Virus record (IMG/VR): IMGVR_UViG_2724679539_000005
Coordinates: 1 to 64,000 of that record
DNA: 64,000 bases
Source: a virus
Lineage: Duplodnaviria; Heunggongvirae; Uroviricota; Caudoviricetes
Strand: one strand, 5' to 3'
Shown here: piece by piece, positions 4,087-38,045 of the stretch
Position numbering within the stretch: the first letter of the stretch is position 1
Layout: each line of letters starts with the position of its first letter
Position numbers and translations under genes: made by a program
The notes under the pieces: model-generated
Databases searched by the model: none
What the model saw: the letters and a program-made list of their open reading frames with translations, nothing else
Told to the model about the DNA's origin: nothing

Positions 4087-4604
4087 CCGTCCAGAAGAAG
4101 ACATTTTCACTGGCAGGTATGTCGCCAAAATCCAGCAATATGACGGCAAAGTCAGGCATTAATACAGCAGATACAAGCAAAGTTTATCATTTGCTGGTGG
4201 TCGGAACGGATGCCTTAACCATACCAGAAATCTCGGGCGATGATATTAGCATTGAGAAGGTCAGCGGCTATGCCAGAGAATTTCTGGTCGTAGATGGCTT
4301 TCTCTGCTCGTGTAGTGACTCCACAAAAACCTTCGTCCACGCGCGTGACGTTAACGAAATGAGCGCGATGTACTGTGCTTCTGGTTCTTCCAATAGTGAG
4401 TTTTCGGAGTCCATAAAAAAGAGCTTGCCGTTATGCGGCAACACGGTTTATGGTTATAAGGCACCTCATAAAACGGGTGCCGGGATTGGCGTCCTGAAAA
4501 TTCTGAAGGCGACATATGACGCGCCGAGCGTCTTTTTTTATGTCGTAGGTCTGACTCACCCATTTTTTGGGCGTTGGTGTATAATCCAGCGCCTTTGTCA
4601 ATCA

Positions 4605-4690
4605 ATGGTGGCTCAGGCGGGGGCTTCTTCGGAAGCGCCGGTATCCTTCAGAGCCGGTTACGCCAACCCTGTCTGGGCTACCACCAGCGA
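4605..4690 (+). ncRNA. C4/CI-like antisense RNA (P1 C4, P4 CI type), copy A
   Basis: GGGCTTCTTCGGAAGCGCCGG hairpin with UUCG loop and CCGGTTACGCCAACC shared exactly with copy B at 32687; loop CCTTCAGA is complementary to TCTGAAGG in the RBS of the ORF at 4742. Confidence 0.5.
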
Positions 4691-6419: not shown

Positions 6420-8771
6420 ATGCGAAACATTGATCTTATCCGTCAGGTTATCAGTGCGTCTGAAAACAACTGGCCTCATGTGCTGGGCTGCCTGAACATA
6501 AATGTCCCTGACTCTCCGCGCCGTCATGCTCCCTGCCCTGCATGTGGGGGCAAAGATCGATTCCGGTTCGACGACAACGGGCGCGGTAGCTTCATCTGTA
6601 ATCAGTGCGGCGCTGGTGATGGGCTGGATTTAATTAAACGCGTAAATAACTGCGACACAACAGAGGCGGCGCTTCTTGCCGCTGATGTTCTGGGTATTGA
6701 TTACCGGACAACGGAAACACCAGAAGCCACCAGCCAGAAACGGGAACAACTGGAAACCGAGCGCCAGCAACGCGAACAGGAGCGCCTGAAAAGGGCAGAG
6801 AAGGACGAACAACAAAGACGGGATACGTTTTCCCGTCAGTTTGATGACATGCGCAGAAAGGCTGTAAACGGCAAATCTGATTATCTGTTTGCGAAAGGGG
6901 TAGGTGATTTTACATTCCCTGTGTTGCCCGATGGATCTCTGTTGCTGGCGCTGGTGGATAAATCCGGCGCAGTCACAGCAGCACAGACTATTACCTCACA
7001 TGGTGAAAAAAGACTCCTGACAGGTTCAGCAAAGCGAGGGGCATATCACGCCATAAACGCACAGAAACGACCTCACAGCATCATAATTGCTGAGGGGGTG
7101 GCTACCGCCCTGTCGTGCCATTTAATTCGCCCTGACGCAATGACAGTGGCAGCAATCGACGCTGGCAACCTGTTGCCAGTAGCGGAAGTCATGCGCAGAA
7201 CATATCCACAGGCACAAATCATCATTGCCGCAGATAACGATCACCAGCAAGGAAACTCCGAAAGTGGAGGGATCAACACGGGGAAAGATGCCGCAGAGAG
7301 GGCCGCTATTTCCGTAGCTGGCTGGGTGTCTCTGCCACCGACTGACTATAAAGCCGACTGGAACGACTATCACCAACAACACGGGCTGGCGGCAGCCACA
7401 GCAGCATTTAAAGATTCGATGTACCAGCCACGGGGGAAAGGGGCGCAGGTGAAAAATCACAAACAGTCAGTCGGGGCGCTGAATGAGATCAGTTCTGGCG
7501 AGGTGTTAAGCGATGATGAAATTGCTGTCCTCGAAGAAATCAACCGGACGTTTACGCATGTCACCATCGGCGGGAAACACAAGGTGGTGTCGCTAAAGCC
7601 TTCTCAAACCGGCGGTGTATCGCACGTTTTCGAGGATTTATCACAATTTCAGCATTATTTTCATCATAAACCGAGAGTCGCCAGAAAGCTGGCGGGATCG
7701 GCGTGGCTGTCATGGAGTGGGAAGAACTACAAGCCAGGAGGCGTAGGATTTTATCCAGTACCAGACAAATGCCCTGACGATGTTTTTAATCTGTATGAGG
7801 GGCTGGCACTGGAACCAATTGAAGGAGATTGCACGGTATACCTTAATCACCTGTTGCAGGTTGTCTGTGCCGGTAATGAAGAGGCATACCAATATCTTAT
7901 CCAGTGGATGGCGCACATTATCCAAAAGCCTGATGAAAAACCGTCCGTGGCAATCGTGATGAAATCTGTCCCGGGCACAGGGAAAGGCACAACGGTTAAA
8001 CCGCTGCTGCAAATACTGGGGCAGTACGCCGCCCACATTAACGGGGCGGGACATATTTCAGGGCGCTTCAATTCAATACTTGCTAACAAGCTACTGGTAT
8101 TTGCTGACGAAGTGACGATCCACAAGCCGTCTGAAGCTGACAGACTTAAAGCGATTATTAGCGAACCGACGTTTAACCTTGAGCGCAAGGGAATTGATGC
8201 TGAACCAATGCCGAATTTTGCCCGGTTGATATTTGCCAGTAACAGCACACAGGTATTACAGGCAGGGATAAGAGAGCGCCGCTATCTCGTGCTTGAGCCA
8301 TCTCCTGAAAAAGCACAGAGCCGGGAGTATTTTGATCGGCTGTACAGTTGGCTTAATGATGGCGGTGCCGCAAAGTTGCTTTGGCATCTTAAAGGGGTGG
8401 ATCTCTCAGGTTTTGACCCTCAACGAGCGCCACAGACCGATGCCTTACGTGAAGAAATCTTGCTGGGGCTGTCTGGCGTTGAATTGTTTCTTTATGGCGA
8501 GCTAATCAATGAACCTCCGTTTAATGGCGAAGTCCGTTTGTTTGCAAAGGATATGGTTAGTCGATTTGTAGCGTGGTCGCTTGAGCGTGGGGAAAAGCTT
8601 AAAGAACCAGCTGCCAGATCACTACTGGGTAAATCACTTGCACAAATGGGGCTGGTGAAGCATGGAAGACCAGACCGAGGGAATGGCGTGTTCTACGAAC
8701 TACCAGAGGTCGGAGTTCTACAGGCTGCGTTTGCCCGTCTGATCGGTATGGGGGGTTATGATGTTTTTTAA
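6420..8771 (+). CDS. P4 alpha-type primase/helicase
   Basis: N-terminal zinc-binding CPACGG..CNQCG, primase region, P-loop VPGTGKGT (D5/P4 alpha helicase type). Confidence 0.85.
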   Translation: MRNIDLIRQVISASENNWPHVLGCLNINVPDSPRRHAPCPACGGKDRFRFDDNGRGSFICNQCGAGDGLDLIKRVNNCDTTEAALLAADVLGIDYRTTETPEATSQKREQLETERQQREQERLKRAEKDEQQRRDTFSRQFDDMRRKAVNGKSDYLFAKGVGDFTFPVLPDGSLLLALVDKSGAVTAAQTITSHGEKRLLTGSAKRGAYHAINAQKRPHSIIIAEGVATALSCHLIRPDAMTVAAIDAGNLLPVAEVMRRTYPQAQIIIAADNDHQQGNSESGGINTGKDAAERAAISVAGWVSLPPTDYKADWNDYHQQHGLAAATAAFKDSMYQPRGKGAQVKNHKQSVGALNEISSGEVLSDDEIAVLEEINRTFTHVTIGGKHKVVSLKPSQTGGVSHVFEDLSQFQHYFHHKPRVARKLAGSAWLSWSGKNYKPGGVGFYPVPDKCPDDVFNLYEGLALEPIEGDCTVYLNHLLQVVCAGNEEAYQYLIQWMAHIIQKPDEKPSVAIVMKSVPGTGKGTTVKPLLQILGQYAAHINGAGHISGRFNSILANKLLVFADEVTIHKPSEADRLKAIISEPTFNLERKGIDAEPMPNFARLIFASNSTQVLQAGIRERRYLVLEPSPEKAQSREYFDRLYSWLNDGGAAKLLWHLKGVDLSGFDPQRAPQTDALREEILLGLSGVELFLYGELINEPPFNGEVRLFAKDMVSRFVAWSLERGEKLKEPAARSLLGKSLAQMGLVKHGRPDRGNGVFYELPEVGVLQAAFARLIGMGGYDVF

Positions 8772-10685: not shown

Positions 10686-12029
10686 ATGGCTACGTGGCAA
10701 CAGGGTATTAATTCTGGTGGTTTTCTGGCTGGCATCGGTGCGCAAAATGAGAATGCGCCAAAGGCAAGCGACATTAACGCAACGCTTGGTCTGATCCGCG
10801 AAAACAATGAACTGGCTCGCTCAGGTGCAAATAACGTTGCTCTGACAGGTCTTCGTGGTCTGGCTGGAGTTGCTGACATTTATAAGCAGCAGCAACAGCA
10901 GGAACGTAAAGCGGCATTCCAGAAAGGTTATGCAGATGCTTATGCGTCCGGTGACAGGGAGCAGATGCGTAATCTTATTACAGCATTCCCAGAAGAGTTT
11001 GAGGAAGTCCGTAAAGGGATGAGTTATGTCGATGATGCTCAAAGGGATGATTATGGCAATCTGGCGCTCAAAGCACAGGTAGCCTCATCGCTTGGTCAGG
11101 GCGCATTTGGCAGGTTCATGATGGATAATGAGCAGGAGATGCGTCGTTTAGGTATCCCTCCAGAAACTATTGCTGAAATGCAGGTTAATGACCCGCAGGG
11201 CTTCCAGCATTTCGCAGGTAATCTGGCGCTGTTTTCTCTCGGTCATGAGAAGTATTTCGATATCAAAGATCAAATGGAAGGTCGTCGACTTGAGCAAGGG
11301 CGACTGGATGAAAGTATGCGTCAGGCTGACATGGAGAACGCGAGAGGATGGGCAAATATCCAGAACGCTCAACTAGACAGGGCTCAGCGAGCACAAATTC
11401 ACTCAGATGAGATGGGATTGAAGCTAATGGAGCTGGGGCAAAAAGGTAAGCCGTCAGCAGACTTAATTAAGGGATTAAATTCTGACATTACCAATTTTGG
11501 CAAAAATTATAACTCTGTCAGAGCGGCGGCAAACTCTCTGCAAGCCCTTAGCAAGGTAAATACTGGCGCTGCCCAACTTGGGATTATCTTCAACTACATG
11601 AAATCTCTTGACCCGCAGTCAGTCGTTCGTGAAGGCGAACAGGTTCAGGTAATGCGGTCTGATGGCATATGGGGACAAATCAAAGGATACATAGACCAGC
11701 TTAATGCTGGAAACGGCCTGTCGCAGGAGGCAAAGGATAACATTGTTAACGCCGCAAAAATCAACGCCAATGCTATGGGGCAGCAGTTTAACCAGCAGGT
11801 TGACGAGTATCTCGATACATATGGAGAAACTATTCCTCAGGGGCTAAGAAAAAGCCTTGAAAGAAGGAAAGCGAAGCTATTTGACGATGTTTCCGGGCAG
11901 CCTACATCACAGGCTGGCACTGGACAGGCAAAAGCGGCAACCGGAGGAATATCAGAAGGCGCAACGGCAACCAACCCTAAAACTGGTCAGAAAATCATTT
12001 ACAGGAACGGAAAATGGCAGCAAATGTAA
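10686..12029 (+). CDS. Hypothetical protein (about 450 aa), Gln/Ala/Asn-rich
   Basis: Long ORF; alternative GTG start at 10674. Confidence 0.6.
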   Translation: MATWQQGINSGGFLAGIGAQNENAPKASDINATLGLIRENNELARSGANNVALTGLRGLAGVADIYKQQQQQERKAAFQKGYADAYASGDREQMRNLITAFPEEFEEVRKGMSYVDDAQRDDYGNLALKAQVASSLGQGAFGRFMMDNEQEMRRLGIPPETIAEMQVNDPQGFQHFAGNLALFSLGHEKYFDIKDQMEGRRLEQGRLDESMRQADMENARGWANIQNAQLDRAQRAQIHSDEMGLKLMELGQKGKPSADLIKGLNSDITNFGKNYNSVRAAANSLQALSKVNTGAAQLGIIFNYMKSLDPQSVVREGEQVQVMRSDGIWGQIKGYIDQLNAGNGLSQEAKDNIVNAAKINANAMGQQFNQQVDEYLDTYGETIPQGLRKSLERRKAKLFDDVSGQPTSQAGTGQAKAATGGISEGATATNPKTGQKIIYRNGKWQQM

Positions 12030-30719: not shown

Positions 30720-32138
30720 TTAGAAAATAATGTTTGCTATATCCGAGATAGCATTTAAAGAACCTCTGTGGTCACTTCCTGTTTTAGGTAAAATATAGGA
30801 ATATCGAGGGTCTTCATTATATGTTAACTTCCAGTGTTTTCCATCGCTTGACGCACTGAAACCTAAGTCCTTTAAATTTCTTTGTGTTGCGCTATCCATG
30901 CTTCTGTAACCTGTTAAAGTCCTTTTAAGTAATTGGCGGCGACTCTCGGTTTCTTTATTGTATTCATTATTGGCAATTAGGGATGATAAGATATGGTAGC
31001 TTCTACCAAATTCATTTTTATTTTTTATGGCAGTTTTTAGCGCGTCAATAATTATATTTTTGATTTCTCCATCAAAAAAATCAGTCTCTTCACCAGCATT
31101 AAGCACAATGCTTCCTTGGGCTGAAGCTTGTGATTGAAGAGTGCGTACTCTGTGCTCTAAAGAGGAGATCTTATGCTTAAGATCTTCTATTTGGTCATCT
31201 TTCGCAACATTATCGGCTTCGTAAAGCGCCATCAGTTCGCGTGTGTATTCTCCTCTTTCTTTGAGTGAGTTAATAGAGTCTTTCGTTTTTCTGGTTTGTA
31301 TCTCACTCCATCCACTATCTGAGACAGGAGCCATTGTAGTCGTAGCTCTTACAACATCATCAAATAACTCATCTTCAAATTCTTTTGCGGTTTTCTCACC
31401 ACGGCGATAAAAACTGATATTTTGACCCCGTGGCCAATAGATACCAACAGCACCAGCATAGGCATTTTTAGCATTTGTCTCATTTTTTAGCTTAATAGAA
31501 AATAGTCTATTGCTAGGCTCAATTAATACATGTGCTAATCCGCATACCTTTCTTGCAAGGCGTTCTGGGATGATATTGTGAGCATGTTCATTAAAAAAAT
31601 ACTTGGAGCTAACGTATATTATTGGTAGTCTGTTGTCAGTTTCACCATTTATAACTTTAGCTGCTATATTTAAATGTTCATCAGTATCATCTAAGGAATG
31701 AGGTTCGACTGACACCTTGAAAATATCATCAAGACCACCAGAAAATTTATCAATCAATCTCATAACAACTAATGGTTTCTTAGGTTGCGGGGCTAGATAA
31801 GCTGCATCTTGGCTTACAACGCTAGATTCCACCTGAATCCACATGGTATCAGTTTTGAGATTTTTATTAATTGAAATATCTGTTACCCATTTGTGTGGCT
31901 CAGATATTTTCGAATACCTAAAACAGCCTAAACTAGTATCTTTGTTTTTATAAGTTATTATATCAATTCTTTCATTTTTAGACTCTATGAAGTACTCCTC
32001 GCTTTTATAATCACATACTAATTGTGCTGGAATAAAAGTTGTATGTGGTGAGTCGTTTACCCAAGAAAAACATTCATTAAAGATCTCAGCTAGAGATGTG
32101 GAGTTTGAAACATAAAAACCAGTTGAGAAATATTTCAT
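30720..32138 (-). CDS. Hypothetical protein (472 aa), AT-rich moron
   Basis: Long ORF with coiled-coil-like C-terminal half; no recognisable motif. Confidence 0.65.
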   Translation of the reverse strand: MKYFSTGFYVSNSTSLAEIFNECFSWVNDSPHTTFIPAQLVCDYKSEEYFIESKNERIDIITYKNKDTSLGCFRYSKISEPHKWVTDISINKNLKTDTMWIQVESSVVSQDAAYLAPQPKKPLVVMRLIDKFSGGLDDIFKVSVEPHSLDDTDEHLNIAAKVINGETDNRLPIIYVSSKYFFNEHAHNIIPERLARKVCGLAHVLIEPSNRLFSIKLKNETNAKNAYAGAVGIYWPRGQNISFYRRGEKTAKEFEDELFDDVVRATTTMAPVSDSGWSEIQTRKTKDSINSLKERGEYTRELMALYEADNVAKDDQIEDLKHKISSLEHRVRTLQSQASAQGSIVLNAGEETDFFDGEIKNIIIDALKTAIKNKNEFGRSYHILSSLIANNEYNKETESRRQLLKRTLTGYRSMDSATQRNLKDLGFSASSDGKHWKLTYNEDPRYSYILPKTGSDHRGSLNAISDIANIIF

Positions 32139-32242
32139 GAAATTTCCTTATTAAAAATGAGATTAATCTCATTGGCTATGATAATTGTTACCCTCCTTTG
32201 GATCTAGTGTTCATTTGACATAAGAACCTATTGATTCATCAT

Positions 32243-32386
32243 AATCAACTCGCCATAATCATGTCATCGGAGCCTAAAAAACTCCGGTGACTTCTGCGCT
32301 AAACGGGGACGTTTATGCGCACACACAATCCAAACTCTCATCTCCATTCACAGATGCAGAAATGCACCTACGATTTTTTACATTCG
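32243..32386 (+). repeat. Direct repeat copy 1 (about 140 bp, about 90 percent identical to copy at 34177-34317)
   Basis: Alignable by eye: AATCAAC..GCCATAATCATG..AACTCCGGTGACTTCTGCGCTAAACGGGGACGTTTATGCGCACA..CGATTTTTT. Confidence 0.75.
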
Positions 32387-32669
32387 GTGTTTTACTTCGA
32401 CAGCCAGAATTGGGAGTCTCTATTCGTCTGGCGGCTAAAGGTGATATGGAAATCGTTATGTTTTGGCCTGAGGTAGTTGTAACTGTTGTAGCAGCTATGG
32501 CTGTGATCATCATGGTGTCCATTTACTGGGGTTGACGACATGATTTATCCGGCGCTATATTCTGTGCGTTGCCGCAAAATCGGCACACGGGATTGGCGTC
32601 CCGGGATACTACTCAACGCATACCGCGTTAAGCGGTTTTTTTGTGCGCTAAGCACGGCTATGCCCAAAT

Positions 32670-32755
32670 TATGGTGGGCTGTGTGAGGGCTTCTTCGGAA
32701 GCGCCGGGTTTGAGTAGCCGGTTACGCCAACCTTACACAGTTCACCACCAGTCGA
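32670..32755 (+). ncRNA. C4/CI-like antisense RNA, copy B
   Basis: Same conserved scaffold as copy A; loop TTGAGTAG is complementary to CTACTCAA at codons 2-4 of the ant gene. Confidence 0.5.
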
Positions 32756-32798
32756 TTGGCGTCGTTGGTGGTGATGGTTAACCTGATGAGGTGATACT

Positions 32799-33407
32799 AT
32801 GACTACTCAATTAGCATTCCACAAAACGACGTTTACCCCGATTTGCCACAATAACAGAATTTGGCTTACTGCCACTGAAGTTGGTTTAGCACTGGAATAT
32901 GCGGACGATAAAGCAGTTCAGCGCATTTACTCTCGGCACTCAGATGAATTCACAGATATGATGACAAGGGTGGTCAAAGTGACCACCCCTCGTGGAATGC
33001 AGGAGTCTCGAGTATTTAGCCTTCGCGGAGCCCATTTGATCGCCATGTTTGCTCGTACTCCTGTGGCCAAAGAATTCCGCCGCTGGGTTCTGGATATTCT
33101 CGATCGAGAAGTTCAACAATCCCCAATCACAAAACAATTCACTGATAACGAACTTTGCACACTCGCCTGGTTATGGCGAGCAAGTGATACGATGTTAACC
33201 GCCTGCCAGAACGTTACGCCCCTTCTTCAGGTCGCAGAGCATCGCGAAGCAGGTAGATTCACTTCAATCGAACAAGAATATCCTCGGATACTCAACAGGG
33301 CGCGAGAAATCCTTGCCAGAGAAACGGCGCATGTAAAATTCCAACCGTGGCAGGATGATAAGTGGAGTCGTGTGTTACCATATTTCCGTCAGAATCTGTT
33401 GCAATAA
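32799..33407 (+). CDS. ant: Phage antirepressor (Bro-N/Ant family)
   Basis: N-terminal NRIWLTATEVGLALEY region typical of Bro-N; directly downstream of C4-like RNA as in P1 immI. Confidence 0.65.
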   Translation: MTTQLAFHKTTFTPICHNNRIWLTATEVGLALEYADDKAVQRIYSRHSDEFTDMMTRVVKVTTPRGMQESRVFSLRGAHLIAMFARTPVAKEFRRWVLDILDREVQQSPITKQFTDNELCTLAWLWRASDTMLTACQNVTPLLQVAEHREAGRFTSIEQEYPRILNRAREILARETAHVKFQPWQDDKWSRVLPYFRQNLLQ

Positions 33408-33426
33408 AGTCACTAGTTAGAAATAC

Positions 33427-33467
33427 TGCCAGCATTCTGCGATGACGGAAGTGCTGGCATTTTTTTT
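33427..33467 (+). terminator. Rho-independent terminator
   Basis: TGCCAGCA..TGCTGGCA stem followed by T8. Confidence 0.5.
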
Positions 33468-33642
33468 GGTAATGTGCGAGTCCATTTCATAAAATACGGG
33501 TACTGGAACTGGACGATATAATCTAAAAGATACCATTATCAGTAGCATTAAAATCGCTATGTGCCGATACGGATATAAATTATATTGATTGTTCACATAC
33601 CTTATTGGATATTACTGAGGGGTGTTTATATAAGGTGTAACG

Positions 33643-34152
33643 ATGATGTGGAACTTTGACAGTGCCGACTTAAGTGCAATAGCAGCAGGCATTTCTGCGT
33701 TTGGCACATTAGCCGCAGCGGGGTCGGCGCTTGCAAGTTGGTACACGTCAAAAAAAGCGCTGCAGCTACAAAATAGAGTTTACCTTTATGAGTCTTTAAA
33801 GGCTTGCGCTGAGAGAGCCAATTCATCAGCTAAAGATAAGCGCGGATCTGAATGGAGCGTTAATGATGCAGCGGATATCATCAGGTGCCTAGTACGGGCG
33901 ATGGAGATCATCAAGCAGGATAGCCAGCAGAAAGAAGGTAATCAGGCATTAATGTTGAAACAGTACTTTGTTAATCTGCTAATAATGGAACTGTACGAGG
34001 AAGTTCATAACGGTGATGCGGCTGATTCTGTTTTTAAAAGTACGGAACCTACACAAGTACTTGATAACTTATGGAGCAAATGGCAGGAGGCTATAGCTTT
34101 TTTTGATATTTGGAATTACCCAGTTGCGACTGAGGAAGACTTGGCAGACTAA
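33643..34152 (+). CDS. Hypothetical protein (169 aa), AT-rich
   Basis: ORF inside repeat-flanked cassette. Confidence 0.45.
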   Translation: MMWNFDSADLSAIAAGISAFGTLAAAGSALASWYTSKKALQLQNRVYLYESLKACAERANSSAKDKRGSEWSVNDAADIIRCLVRAMEIIKQDSQQKEGNQALMLKQYFVNLLIMELYEEVHNGDAADSVFKSTEPTQVLDNLWSKWQEAIAFFDIWNYPVATEEDLAD

Positions 34153-34176
34153 TTTTCAGCACATTTGATTTCCAAT

Positions 34177-34317
34177 AATCAACCAGCCATAATCATGCCA
34201 TTGGAGCTTGAACAACTCCGGTGACTTCTGCGCTAAACGGGGACGTTTATGCGCACATACAATCCAAACTCTCTTCTCCCTTCACAGATGCAGAGATGCA
34301 CCTGCGATTTTTTGCAT
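34177..34317 (+). repeat. Direct repeat copy 2, immediately upstream of ninB
   Basis: See copy 1. Confidence 0.75.
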
Positions 34318-34346
34318 CCAGCGTTTGACCTCTGCGGAGGTGAAGC

Positions 34347-34802
34347 GTGAACCTCCCACAAGACGGCATCAAATTGCATCGTGGTAACTTCACTGCTATC
34401 GGTCAGCAGATCCAGCCTTATCTGGAGGAAGGCAAATGCTTTCGCATGGTGCTTAAACCGTGGCGTGAGAAACGCAGTCTTTCCCAGAATGCACTCAGCC
34501 ACATGTGGTACAGCGAAATCAGTGAATACCTCATCAGCAGGGGTAAAACGTTCGCCACTCCAGCTTGGGTAAAAGATGCTCTCAAACACACATATCTCGG
34601 TTATGAAACCAAAGACCTGGTTGATGTCGTAACCGGTGAGATCACCACTATCCAGTCGTTACGCCATACCTCCGATCTTGATACCGGAGAGATGTATATC
34701 TTCCTGTGTAAGGTTGAAGCCTGGGCGGTGAATATTGGCTGCCACCTGACTATTCCGCAGAGCTGCGAGTTCCAGCTGCTCCGCGACAAGCAGGAGGCGT
34801 AA
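34347..34802 (+). CDS. ninB: NinB-like recombination protein
   Basis: [13 protein letters not shown] motif resembles NinB; first nin-region gene. Confidence 0.6.
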
Positions 34803-35821: not shown

Positions 35822-36214
35822 TTGTGGAGTAAGTTGATGCGTGATATTCAGATGGTTCTTGAGCGTTGGGGAGCGTGGGCGGCTAATAATCATGAAGATG
35901 TGACCTGGTCGTCCATTGCCGCCGGTTTTAAGGGATTAATTACTTCAAAAGTAAAATCTCGCCCGCAATGTTGTGACGATGACGCGATGATCATTTGCGG
36001 GTGCATGGCCCGTCTGAAAAAGAACAACAGCGATTTGCATGATTTATTGGTGGACTATTATGTCGGCGGCATGACTTTTATGGCGCTTGCACGTAAGCAT
36101 GGGCGATCTGATTGTTGGGTTGGCAGGATGCTCCAGAAAGCTGAGGGCGTAGTGGAGGGTATGCTGATGGTGTTGGATCTCCGATTGGAGATGGATGCTG
36201 ATTGTTCGAAATAA
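35822..36214 (+). CDS. Q: Antitermination protein Q (non-lambda Q family)
   Basis: Position after rusA, Cys/His-rich; alternative start 35837. Confidence 0.55.
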
Positions 36215-36368: not shown

Positions 36369-36893
36369 TTATTGTTTAACCCATAATAATTCATTGACAT
36401 TGAATCCCAACTTTTGAGCGGTTCGCACATAGTCTGCTTTTACTTTATCTGGAATAGTTGGGGTCCTTGCCAGAATCCATAGGTATTCTCTGTTCGGACC
36501 ACTGACAAGAGCATACTTATACTTATCATCCAGTTTGATTACATTATAGCCACCATAGAAGGGGCCAAAAAACGAAACCTTCAACGCTGCAGTTTTAGTA
36601 TCTCCAGTAAAGTATGCTTTACCTTCGCTCTCGCTCCATTTATTTTTCGTTGGATCGTATCCACGGTTAAGTACACGAATCCCTCCGTCGTTCCGTTTTC
36701 CATAAGTAGCGCTGACCTGTTCCAGACCACGTTCGAACCGGTTCTCGAGGCGAGCTATTTCATACCATTTTCCGAGGTAGCGGTTGGCGTCAAAATTTGT
36801 AATCGGCTGCACACCTTTAGGTGGTGTCGGGGCCTTACATGCTATAAGAGTGAAAGAGAGTGCAATGCCAGTCAACACAGGCCATAACTTCAT
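36369..36893 (-). CDS. blc: Outer-membrane lipocalin Blc-like lipoprotein
   Basis: Lipobox LIAC, motifs YLGKWYEIARLENRFERG and FFGPFYGGYNVI. Confidence 0.85.
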   Translation of the reverse strand: MKLWPVLTGIALSFTLIACKAPTPPKGVQPITNFDANRYLGKWYEIARLENRFERGLEQVSATYGKRNDGGIRVLNRGYDPTKNKWSESEGKAYFTGDTKTAALKVSFFGPFYGGYNVIKLDDKYKYALVSGPNREYLWILARTPTIPDKVKADYVRTAQKLGFNVNELLWVKQ

Positions 36894-37085: not shown

Positions 37086-38045
37086 ATGATAAAAAAACCT
37101 GTGATTGGAATCAGCGGTTGTTTGGCCGGTTCTGCTGTTCGTTTTGATGGTGGTCACAAAAGAGCTGACTTTTTAATGGACAAATTAGTGGAATGGGTAA
37201 CATTCAGACCAGTATGTCCAGAAATGGCTATAGGGCTGCCAGTTCCGCGTCCTGCTCTACGTCTTGTGCGCTCGACGCAAGGGAATATACGGATGTGTTT
37301 CAGCCACGACCAGAATGAGGATGTGACAGAGAGAATGACAGAGTTTAGTCGTTCTTATATGGACAAATTAAAGGATGTATCGGGATTTGTGGTTTGTGCT
37401 AAATCTCCCAGCTGTGGCATGGAGCGCGTGCGTGTCTATGATGAAAATGGTAATCGAGGTCGTAAAGATGGAGTGGGACTATTTACGAGCACTTTGATGG
37501 AAAAGTTTTCCTGGCTACCGGTTGAAGAGGATGGGCGATTACATGATCCAGTGCTTCGTGAGAATTTTGTTGAAAGAGTTTTTGCTTTGCATGAGCTCAA
37601 TCACCTTTACAAGGAGAAATTATCAAGAAGAGAGTTATTAGCTTTTCATAGTCGTTATAAGCTTCAGTTGTTGGCGCATAGTCAGGCAGGCTATAAAGAT
37701 ATGGGACCATTTGTGGCTGCAATACACGAGTGGGCGGACCTTGAATCATACTTTGAGGTGTATCGTGATAAGCTGATGGCGATTCTCAGAAAACCTGCAT
37801 CACGTAAAAATCACACGAATGTGCTGATGCATATACAGGGGTATTTTAGTAACTACTTAAGTACACGCCAGCGTAAAGAGTTGAGCGAGGTTATACTTAA
37901 CTATCGTTCTGGCACATTACCTCTTCTTGCGCCGTTGACTCTGCTGAAGCATTATCTGGGTGAGTATCCTAATGATTACTTGCTTACACAGAATTACTTC
38001 GATCCCTATCCGGACGAACTGGCTCTAAGACTGATGGTAAATTAA
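37086..38045 (+). CDS. DUF523/DUF1722 (YbgA-like) protein
   Basis: 319 aa resembling YbgA-type proteins. Confidence 0.5.
   Translation: MIKKPVIGISGCLAGSAVRFDGGHKRADFLMDKLVEWVTFRPVCPEMAIGLPVPRPALRLVRSTQGNIRMCFSHDQNEDVTERMTEFSRSYMDKLKDVSGFVVCAKSPSCGMERVRVYDENGNRGRKDGVGLFTSTLMEKFSWLPVEEDGRLHDPVLRENFVERVFALHELNHLYKEKLSRRELLAFHSRYKLQLLAHSQAGYKDMGPFVAAIHEWADLESYFEVYRDKLMAILRKPASRKNHTNVLMHIQGYFSNYLSTRQRKELSEVILNYRSGTLPLLAPLTLLKHYLGEYPNDYLLTQNYFDPYPDELALRLMVN

Follow-up and report, generated by a model that had tools for sequence, protein, structure and literature searches.

Diverged copies of a ninB leader as a probable module boundary for exchange of an antirepressor cassette in lambdoid phages

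Organisation of the locus

The window analysed here is a stretch of 64,000 nucleotides (nt) from an E. coli prophage of the class Caudoviricetes (IMG/VR record IMGVR_UViG_2724679539_000005, positions 1 to 64,000), and its feature under study is a direct repeat that brackets an antirepressor cassette upstream of the gene ninB. A repeat scan of the window delimited the repeat family as 32231-32398 (copy 1) and 34165-34332 (copy 2), 168 nt each, with 87% ungapped identity and a spacing of 1934 nt. All the coordinates below are those of the window, on the given strand unless the reverse strand is mentioned. An earlier note on this DNA had described repeats of about 140 bp at about 90% identity, at 32243-32386 and 34177-34317; they are real and slightly longer, both intervals falling inside those delimited here. 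The copies are identical at 146 of the 168 positions and differ at 22, with a longest perfect run of 44 nt (repeat positions 50-93). Aligned with blastn they share 88.6% identity over 158 nt with an E value of 3e-55, and the repeat is therefore not a chance similarity. An assembly artefact is also excluded, because the repeat-flanked arrangement was found again in many independent complete genomes and phage isolates.

A gap of 14 nt separates the end of copy 2 from the GTG start codon (34347) of ninB, also called ybcN; copy 2 is thus the immediate upstream region of this gene, as the earlier note had it. The gene (34347-34802) is the first of the nin operon and encodes a protein of 151 amino acids (aa) of the Orf/NinB family. 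It is annotated ybcN by PGAP and matches NCBIfam PRK09741 at 1e-83, its score of 22.8 bits with the Pfam NinB family lying just below the cut-off of 23.8.

Between the copies, the C4-like RNA, the ant gene, the terminator and the 169-aa open reading frame (ORF) of the earlier description are all present. Sequence comparison delimits first a spacer (32399-32531) that always accompanies copy 1. It holds an ORF of 29 aa with a hydrophobic product (MEIVMFWPEVVVTVVAAMAVIIMVSIYWG, 32446-32535), preceded by AAGGTG and matching the C-terminal half of phrog_4612 (1.7e-16). Its frame is kept through 3- and 6-nt indels in the variant L120 and has a stop at codon 7 in the variant L008. The product may be a small membrane protein. 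Two other frames, a 57-aa ORF (phrog_4612) and a 53-aa extension of the truncated leader ORF of copy 1 (orf33', described below), are probably not conserved frames, given a 1-nt deletion in L046; only the 29-aa ORF, with its own Shine-Dalgarno sequence, stays plausible.

The spacer is followed by a promoter-like site belonging to the cassette itself, TTGACG-18-TATATT (32532-32561), by a match to the c4-a1b1 target (32555-32607; 39.6 bits, below the gathering score of 46.7), by isrK with its terminator (32570-32642; 58.7 bits, gathering score 50) and by the C4 RNA (32667-32752; 74.8 bits, gathering score 45). The ORF list gives an orf45-like upstream ORF at 32671-32781. The antirepressor gene ant (32799-33407, 202 aa) shows Bro-N and P22_AR_C domains at 4.4e-10 and 1.7e-17, respectively, and the module is closed by an intrinsic terminator (33427-33467) made of a hairpin at 33427-33459 and a run of eight U, with a folding energy of -18.6 kcal/mol. 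With isrK and C4 both above their gathering scores and an antirepressor gene downstream, the cassette has these features of an isrK/C4-antirepressor module. In the genome L109 it is found without copy 1, directly after ren, and the homology begins at the -35 hexamer TTGACG of its own promoter-like site. This left edge agrees with the PisrK promoter, which was experimentally defined in the isrK-orf45-anrP locus of Gifsy-1 (PMC4825925).

The last gene before copy 2 is the 169-aa ORF (33643-34152), a member of phrog_1779, whose function is unknown. The same ORF is also found directly before single leaders without ant. Since it occurs alone in such places, it is an independent moron, and what we call the cassette consists of two modules.

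Conservation of the repeated unit

Searching phage records with copy 1, we detected a unit of about 150 nt directly upstream of the ninB/ybcN homologue in phages 82, phi80, HK639 and HK225, as well as in Enterobacter phage CobraSix and Klebsiella phage KO-TP1. DLP12-type prophages, and lambda hybrids carrying DLP12-type DNA, also have the unit before ninB/ybcN. The record of phage 82 (X92588) annotates within it a putative -35/-10 pair, an inverted repeat ("possible regulator-binding site"), a ribosome-binding site and a small ORF, and the phi80 record names the inverted repeat IR4. The small ORF is orf33 in phage 82 and ylcH in the DLP12 prophage of K-12. By these comparisons, the repeat of the window is best described as two homologous, non-identical copies of what appears to be the regulatory leader of the lambdoid ninB/ybcN operon.

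The unit is widespread. A scan of IMG/VR with a pattern inside the leader, the block CACAGATGCAGARATGCAYCTRCG, retrieved 120 contigs that carry it; NinB and then NinE follow directly in nearly all of them, and the upstream neighbour is variable. The leader was found in 2,759-2,970, or about half, of the 5,426 complete E. coli genomes searched, K-12 included. It begins exactly at a -35-like hexamer, TTGATT, which lies inside a TTGAT-N8-ATCAA palindrome. Upstream of it we found ren, morons, the 169-aa ORF, theta-like genes or N15 gp45-like genes, and downstream of it variants of ninB. In many genomes the leader hence sits between unrelated flanking modules, the situation that characterises a module junction.

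No Rfam 15 family matched the leader at E<=1 within 32231-32398 or 34165-34346. Literature searches on ylcH, orf33, phi80 IR4 and the PhiR phages returned nothing describing the leader, the HusR paper dealing with a site at ybcO/rusA and not with the ninB leader.

Predicted structure of the leader

Both copies open with promoter-like hexamers, TTGATT-17-CATAAT (32231-32259 in copy 1, 34165-34193 in copy 2), followed by two hairpins recovered by folding and by the model R1: H1 (32263-32291 and 34197-34225) and H2 (32296-32320 and 34230-34254). H1 stands after CATAAT, with a stem of 10-12 bp whose sequence varies between phages and a nearly constant loop, YCUGAACAM. A conserved GACUUCUGCGC separates it from H2, which exists in three sequence classes. 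In all of them the loop contains GGGA, and the 3' arm of the stem includes the AUG or GUG with which orf33 starts. The leader ORF, of 31-34 codons, spans two further predicted hairpins, H3 (GAUGCAGAAA...UUUUYUGCAUY) and H4. The latter occurs in three unrelated sequence classes of about -12 to -20 kcal/mol, each burying the ninB Shine-Dalgarno sequence GGAGG and ending at the ninB start.

Copy 2 belongs to a leader complete in these respects. Its orf33/ylcH-type ORF has 33 codons (34249-34350) and was recognised from the sequence, from orf33 of X92588 and from 102-nt coding sequences annotated by PGAP; folding places H3 at 34287-34318, and folding together with the three sequence classes places H4, GCGUUUGACCUC-UGCG-GAGGUGAAGCG, at 34321-34347. 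The TGA stop of orf33 overlaps the GTG start of ninB (GTGA). More generally, orf33 is open, with a stop overlapping the ninB start as ATGA or GTGA, in 99 of the 101 unique ninB-type leaders. Copy 1 has the promoter-like hexamers followed by H1 and H2 and lacks the complete orf33, the stop/start overlap and an H4 over a Shine-Dalgarno sequence.

The z-scores of the leader fold range from -3.1 to -6.2. A covariance model was built from nine sequences in consistent register, and 106 instances were re-aligned with it, giving the alignment A9. In A9, which is fitted to the structure, standard pairs fill 96.0% of the pair cells, against 81.5% in shuffles (none of 500 reaching the observed value) and 25-48% with slid partners. 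Compensatory double changes were found at 14 of the 21 base pairs, and covariation is strong in H1 and H2. A long-range pairing of 6 bp, UUCUGC with GCAGAA, is possible as well, both segments being invariant.

Several other roles were considered for these elements. A role of H1 as a DNA operator is less likely, since its G-U-compatible asymmetries are numerous and its loop is constant, both in favour of an RNA hairpin. Nor is H1 likely to be an N-utilisation boxB, its loop recurring in phages whose antitermination systems differ; in HK639, antitermination relies on put RNA and not on N. The palindrome (32231-32248 and 34165-34182) keeps its arms across phages around a variable centre and may be a protein-binding site; it fits neither an FNR site (N4 spacing) nor a LexA box. 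Finally, a terminator scan flags 34289-34306, in copy 2 only. The U-run concerned differs between homologues (GATATATT, GATGTCTT) and is predicted to pair with the AGAAA of H3, and a tR2-like terminator at the T-run of the repeat was set aside for these two reasons.

Divergence of the two copies

Copy 1, a truncated ninB-type leader, keeps the orf33 start (32315) and about 27 codons (orf33') in addition to the promoter-like hexamers, H1 and H2, and then diverges into the 133-nt spacer. Its H3 is weakened, H4 is absent, and its H1 loop carries a private mutation, CCUAAAAAA in place of the consensus CCUGAACAA. Copy 1 outscores copy 2 with the model R1 (40.1 bits, E=4e-7, versus 34.9 bits, E=9e-6). 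It is also nearer to the ninB leaders of other phages, at 91.6-93.7% identity (phage Turner, 93.7%), than to copy 2, at 88.6%. Copy 2 itself is 92.9% identical to the phage 82 leader over 156 nt.

The junction between copy 1, the spacer and isrK was recovered in 299 of the 5,426 E. coli genomes, with 80% or more of 32231-32760 present. It is identical in variants that are only 84-90% identical to the window, namely L008 and L107, whose cassette comprises ant, a HEPN gene and a hypothetical gene, L120, L036 and phage IdasGreatGrand. These variants differ both in the cargo between ant and copy 2 and in their left flanks. As the junction is identical across diverged variants and occurs in 299 genomes, the fusion of the truncated leader with the spacer is old: it arose once, some time ago, and then spread.

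Alleles with and without the cassette

The earlier note had suggested looking in related genomes for alleles reduced to the repeat. We searched the complete E. coli genomes with the predicted product of a crossover in the 44-nt identical run (1,566 nt). In 20 genomes a cassette-free allele aligned without interruption over the whole 1,566 nt, at 96.4-98.5% identity, and the full cassette with its two leaders was found in 112. In the empty genomes, a 472-aa gene (30720-32138 in the window, reverse strand), a single leader and ybcN form one contiguous piece, the 472-aa gene being the left flank common to filled and empty alleles. Three empty genomes were inspected; their gene order, O-P-ren-84-aa ORF-472-aa gene (reverse strand)-orf33-ybcN-ninE-ybcO-rusA, is the context of the window minus the cassette.

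The empty allele L131 is chimeric. At the sites separating the two copies, it has the copy-1 base at 9 of 9 sites in positions 7-44 and the copy-2 base at 11 of 11 sites in positions 94-166, its 3' part including the uncommon GCAGAGATG variant of copy 2. At positions 46 and 49, in the loop, it shows the consensus bases, as does L046 in its near-identical copy 1. The left and right flanks of L131 are 99.6% and 97.3% identical to those of the window, respectively.

Chimeric joints are also found within filled alleles. In phage PhiR26_1, the first 64 nt of copy 1 belong to a different promoter/H1 type and the 104 nt of its 3' part, from position 65 onwards, show 100% identity with those of the window; the cassette region that follows is about 98.6% identical. 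This pattern marks a second crossover inside copy 1. In L132 and L133, a copy-1-type 5' part is joined to another class of H2 and of the 5' part of orf33, the leader being otherwise of the copy-1 type. The exchange points hence vary, from positions 44-94 in L131 to about 49-64 in PhiR26_1 and the swap of an H2 sub-module in L132 and L133. With a unit conserved in mosaic phages, 20 empty alleles in the same context and the chimeric joints of L131 and PhiR26_1, the proposed reading of the repeat as a module boundary permitting gain and loss of the cassette is supported; of the two outcomes that would have spoken against that proposal, a chance similarity of the repeats and the lack of any cassette-free allele, neither was encountered.

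Cargo of the neighbouring slots

The earlier proposal of a double-insertion hotspot also holds, since two slots, one between ren and the leader and one between the ant terminator and copy 2, each contain unrelated cargo in different genomes. The first is occupied in the window by the 472-aa accessory gene, which has a weak PADLOC match to HEC-07 (1e-9). In PhiR26_1 it holds a 500-aa reverse-strand protein annotated PD-lambda-1 (L001, 2214-3716). Assigning that name to the 472-aa gene, which lies at the same position, was rejected, as BLASTP shows no similarity. DLP12-type prophages have emrE-ybcK there, with or without an alpha/beta hydrolase, and PhiR5_1 has three small ORFs. The presence of unrelated large reverse-strand genes at this place in near-identical phages looks like a slot for exchange of defence genes. 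The second slot contains the 169-aa ORF, a HEPN pair, a 241-aa reverse-strand gene or a pair of 81-aa and 195-aa ORFs.

In two DLP12-type prophages (L009 and L010, 2488-2811 in each), the recombinase gene ybcK precedes only the C-terminal part of ant, after which come the 169-aa ORF or a different one and then a single leader. The truncated ant shows that the cassette was once present there, and the order implies that the emrE-ybcK insertion took away copy 1 along with the 5' part of the ancestral ant cassette. In L096, two leaders are separated by 4 kb (6830-7002 and 10921-11103), the first one being followed by a NinB fragment, and in L089 (5047-5536) such a fragment precedes a leader-ninB unit. 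The leader thus joins in further rearrangements.

Elsewhere in the window, some 28 kb upstream (4461-4688), there is a second pair of RNAs, isrK with 67.8 bits and C4 with 79.9 bits, near a match to the int-alpA RNA (1276-1343; 46.7 bits). This pair has no adjoining leader copy and suggests another integrative element with its own antisense-controlled module. On the other side, the Q antiterminator gene (35822-36214) is followed by a gene for a lipocalin-family lipoprotein (36369-36893, reverse strand; Lipocalin_2, 1.4e-43) and by a 2-thiouracil desulfurase/DUF1722 gene (37086-38045). These two genes occupy the place of the porin gene of DLP12-type prophages.

Interpretation

Taken as a whole, the best explanation of the locus is, with a probability that we put at about 0.8, that the two diverged ninB leaders are a module boundary at which the cassette is gained and lost by homologous recombination. 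Because the conserved leader is among the few sequences that otherwise unrelated lambdoid genomes have in common, crossovers could occur repeatedly inside it, catalysed by RecA or by Red/RecT-type phage recombinases. In an earlier event, a leader broken off behind codon 27 or so of orf33 would have been fused to the spacer and the isrK/C4-antirepressor module. Placed upstream of a complete leader-ninB unit, the fused module would have given the order truncated leader-cassette-leader-ninB, a block that would now circulate as a polymorphism. With a partner phage or prophage carrying a single leader, a crossover at copy 1 would keep the cassette and a crossover at copy 2 would lose it, and intramolecular recombination between the copies would delete it. 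Exchange would most likely take place in the identical run of 44 nt. An empty allele such as L131 fits an intramolecular deletion and an inter-genome crossover at copy 2 equally.

The divergence of the copies is no obstacle to this scheme. In lytic growth, a divergence of 12% cuts phage recombination just about 100-fold with respect to identical sequences (De Paepe et al. 2014, PMC3945230), and the repeats are consequently adequate substrates. Homologous rather than site-specific or transpositional exchange follows from the variation of the exchange points and from the lack of a transposase, an integrase and terminal inverted repeats.

For the leader itself, we propose that a sigma-70-type promoter, with its -35 hexamer in the palindrome, would start a transcript opening with H1. 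H2 would then show the orf33 Shine-Dalgarno sequence in its loop and lock the orf33 start in its stem. Once initiated, translation of orf33 would proceed through H3 and H4, the latter burying the ninB Shine-Dalgarno sequence, up to a stop that overlaps the ninB start. Translation of ninB is thus probably gated by that of orf33, through translational coupling, the latter being itself limited by H2 in this model.

Several points weigh against this interpretation. L131, with a right flank only 97.3% identical, is not an immediate derivative of the window. Excision and acquisition are read from the sequences, which would fit either direction for each event. Promoter activity and translational coupling are likewise deduced from sequence alone, and our searches of the literature yielded neither transcription starts nor reporter measurements for ylcH/orf33. 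The percentage of paired cells in A9 is inflated by the fitting of the alignment to the structure, the margin over the controls being still large. Lastly, the invariance of the block CACAGATGCAGARATGCAYCTRCG in the IMG/VR set is partly due to the way this set was retrieved, which under-samples divergent leaders; the block is nevertheless identical in phi80, HK639 and CobraSix, all retrieved by blastn with the whole unit.

Other explanations of the repeat can be set against the same evidence. The earlier note had also envisaged an insertion that duplicated the ninB leader in place. In a recent event of this kind, the cassette would have entered a single leader in this very lineage, for example through Campbell-type integration of a circle with a piece of the leader on it, or through unequal exchange of sister genomes, and would have left two initially identical copies. 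One reciprocal exchange, in either direction, would indeed give both the geometry of the direct repeat and the exactly chimeric empty allele. A recent duplication in situ is however improbable: the copies are 12-13% diverged, with 22 differences over 168 positions, copy 1 is closer to the leaders of other phages than to copy 2, and the same old junction accompanies cassettes that have diverged, with other right-hand cargo and other left flanks. The evidence does not support that part of the earlier proposal. A cassette moved by transposition or by a site-specific recombinase at an integron- or att-like core site is hardly credible. Nothing specific speaks for it, its sole basis being the highly conserved block CACAGATGCAGAAATGCACCTGCG inside the repeat; neither the cassette nor its immediate surroundings contain an ORF for a transposase or an integrase, the repeat scan found no terminal inverted repeats, 168 nt far exceeds a target-site duplication (2-14 bp), and the exchange points differ between genomes.

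A functional duplication, in which copy 1 would be selected as a working leader instead of persisting as a recombination scar, is a possibility that we take more seriously without favouring it. It would place the hydrophobic ORF of the spacer, and read-through into isrK/C4-ant, under the signal that governs ninB, and it is compatible with the exchange of the cassette at the leaders. The promoter-like hexamers, H1, H2 and the orf33 start retained in copy 1, with its R1 score above that of copy 2, agree with such a role. So do the junction kept in 299 genomes and across variants diverged to about 85%, and the 29-31-aa ORF of phrog_4612 with its own AAGGTG, whose frame survives the indels of L120. 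Against it stand the near loss of H1 in L107 and L008 (-4.0 kcal/mol), the replacement of the promoter and half of H1 in L036, the mutated copy-1 loop of the window, the orf33' frame shifted by a 1-nt deletion in the near-identical L046, the stop at codon 7 of the small ORF in L008, and the finding of the cassette, which carries a promoter of its own, without copy 1 in L109. In view of these signs of decay in several lineages, we favour reading copy 1 as a decaying scar over a functional regulator. A bolder version, in which the leader would be an undescribed, widespread cis-regulatory RNA gating the NinB/Orf operon and a functional copy 1 would co-regulate the membrane peptide and the antirepressor, seems to us unlikely. 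Were copy 1 functional, recombination functions and prophage derepression would be co-regulated.

With homology, filled and empty alleles and a chimeric joint all present in public genomes, the locus is a clean natural example of the swapping of lambdoid accessory cassettes, and its two copies give one element two alternative exchange points. The accessory genes in the slots beside the repeats are varied and include known or candidate defence genes, which makes these slots a practical place to seek new ones. The more interesting by-product is the leader itself, widespread and covarying, with four predicted hairpins and an apparently coupled leader ORF, which makes it a readily testable candidate for a control element acting on translation of the NinB/Orf-RusA recombination genes.

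Comparison with known systems

The terminator tR2 of lambda presumably occupies the same position, upstream of ninB at the start of the nin operon, and has no detectable sequence relationship with the leader; a tR2-like terminator role of the leader U-run is doubtful. As in other cases of translational coupling through a leader ORF, for instance orf45-anrP, the upstream ORF contains the hairpin that buries the next Shine-Dalgarno sequence, and its stop codon overlaps the following start, the coupling being here a prediction. Copy 2 corresponds to the orf33-orf151 region of phage 82, equivalent to ylcH-ybcN of DLP12 (X92588, Mahdi et al. 1996), which shares the putative -35/-10 pair, the inverted repeat, the ribosome-binding site, orf33 and the overlap. 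Unlike the present description, that record annotates putative signals only, and neither the four hairpins, nor the covariation, nor a truncated second copy.

The cassette resembles the isrK-orf45-anrP locus of Gifsy-1 and the immI region (c4-icd-ant) of P1 and P7 in its isrK and C4 RNAs, in the ORF running across the C4 region, in the antirepressor and in the terminator. The Gifsy-1 locus lies downstream of a Q-like gene (PMC4825925), whereas the module of the window stands between ren and ninB, behind a truncated ninB leader, and its a1b1 match is below the gathering score.

Finally, the process itself is known: it is lambdoid mosaicism by recombination at conserved sequences, an ordinary process that is unusually well documented here. 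As at the mosaic boundaries of lambdoid phages (modular theory; the 'boundary/linker sequences' of Clark et al. 2001; Martinsohn 2008; PMC3945230), a conserved stretch lies between non-homologous modules, the joints fall inside this stretch, a homology of about 88% is sufficient, and temperate phages and defective prophages such as DLP12 are involved. Unlike at those boundaries, the conserved stretch is here a direct repeat within one genome, which provides two alternative exchange points and makes an intramolecular deletion possible, and the boundary is a structured regulatory leader and not the end of a gene.

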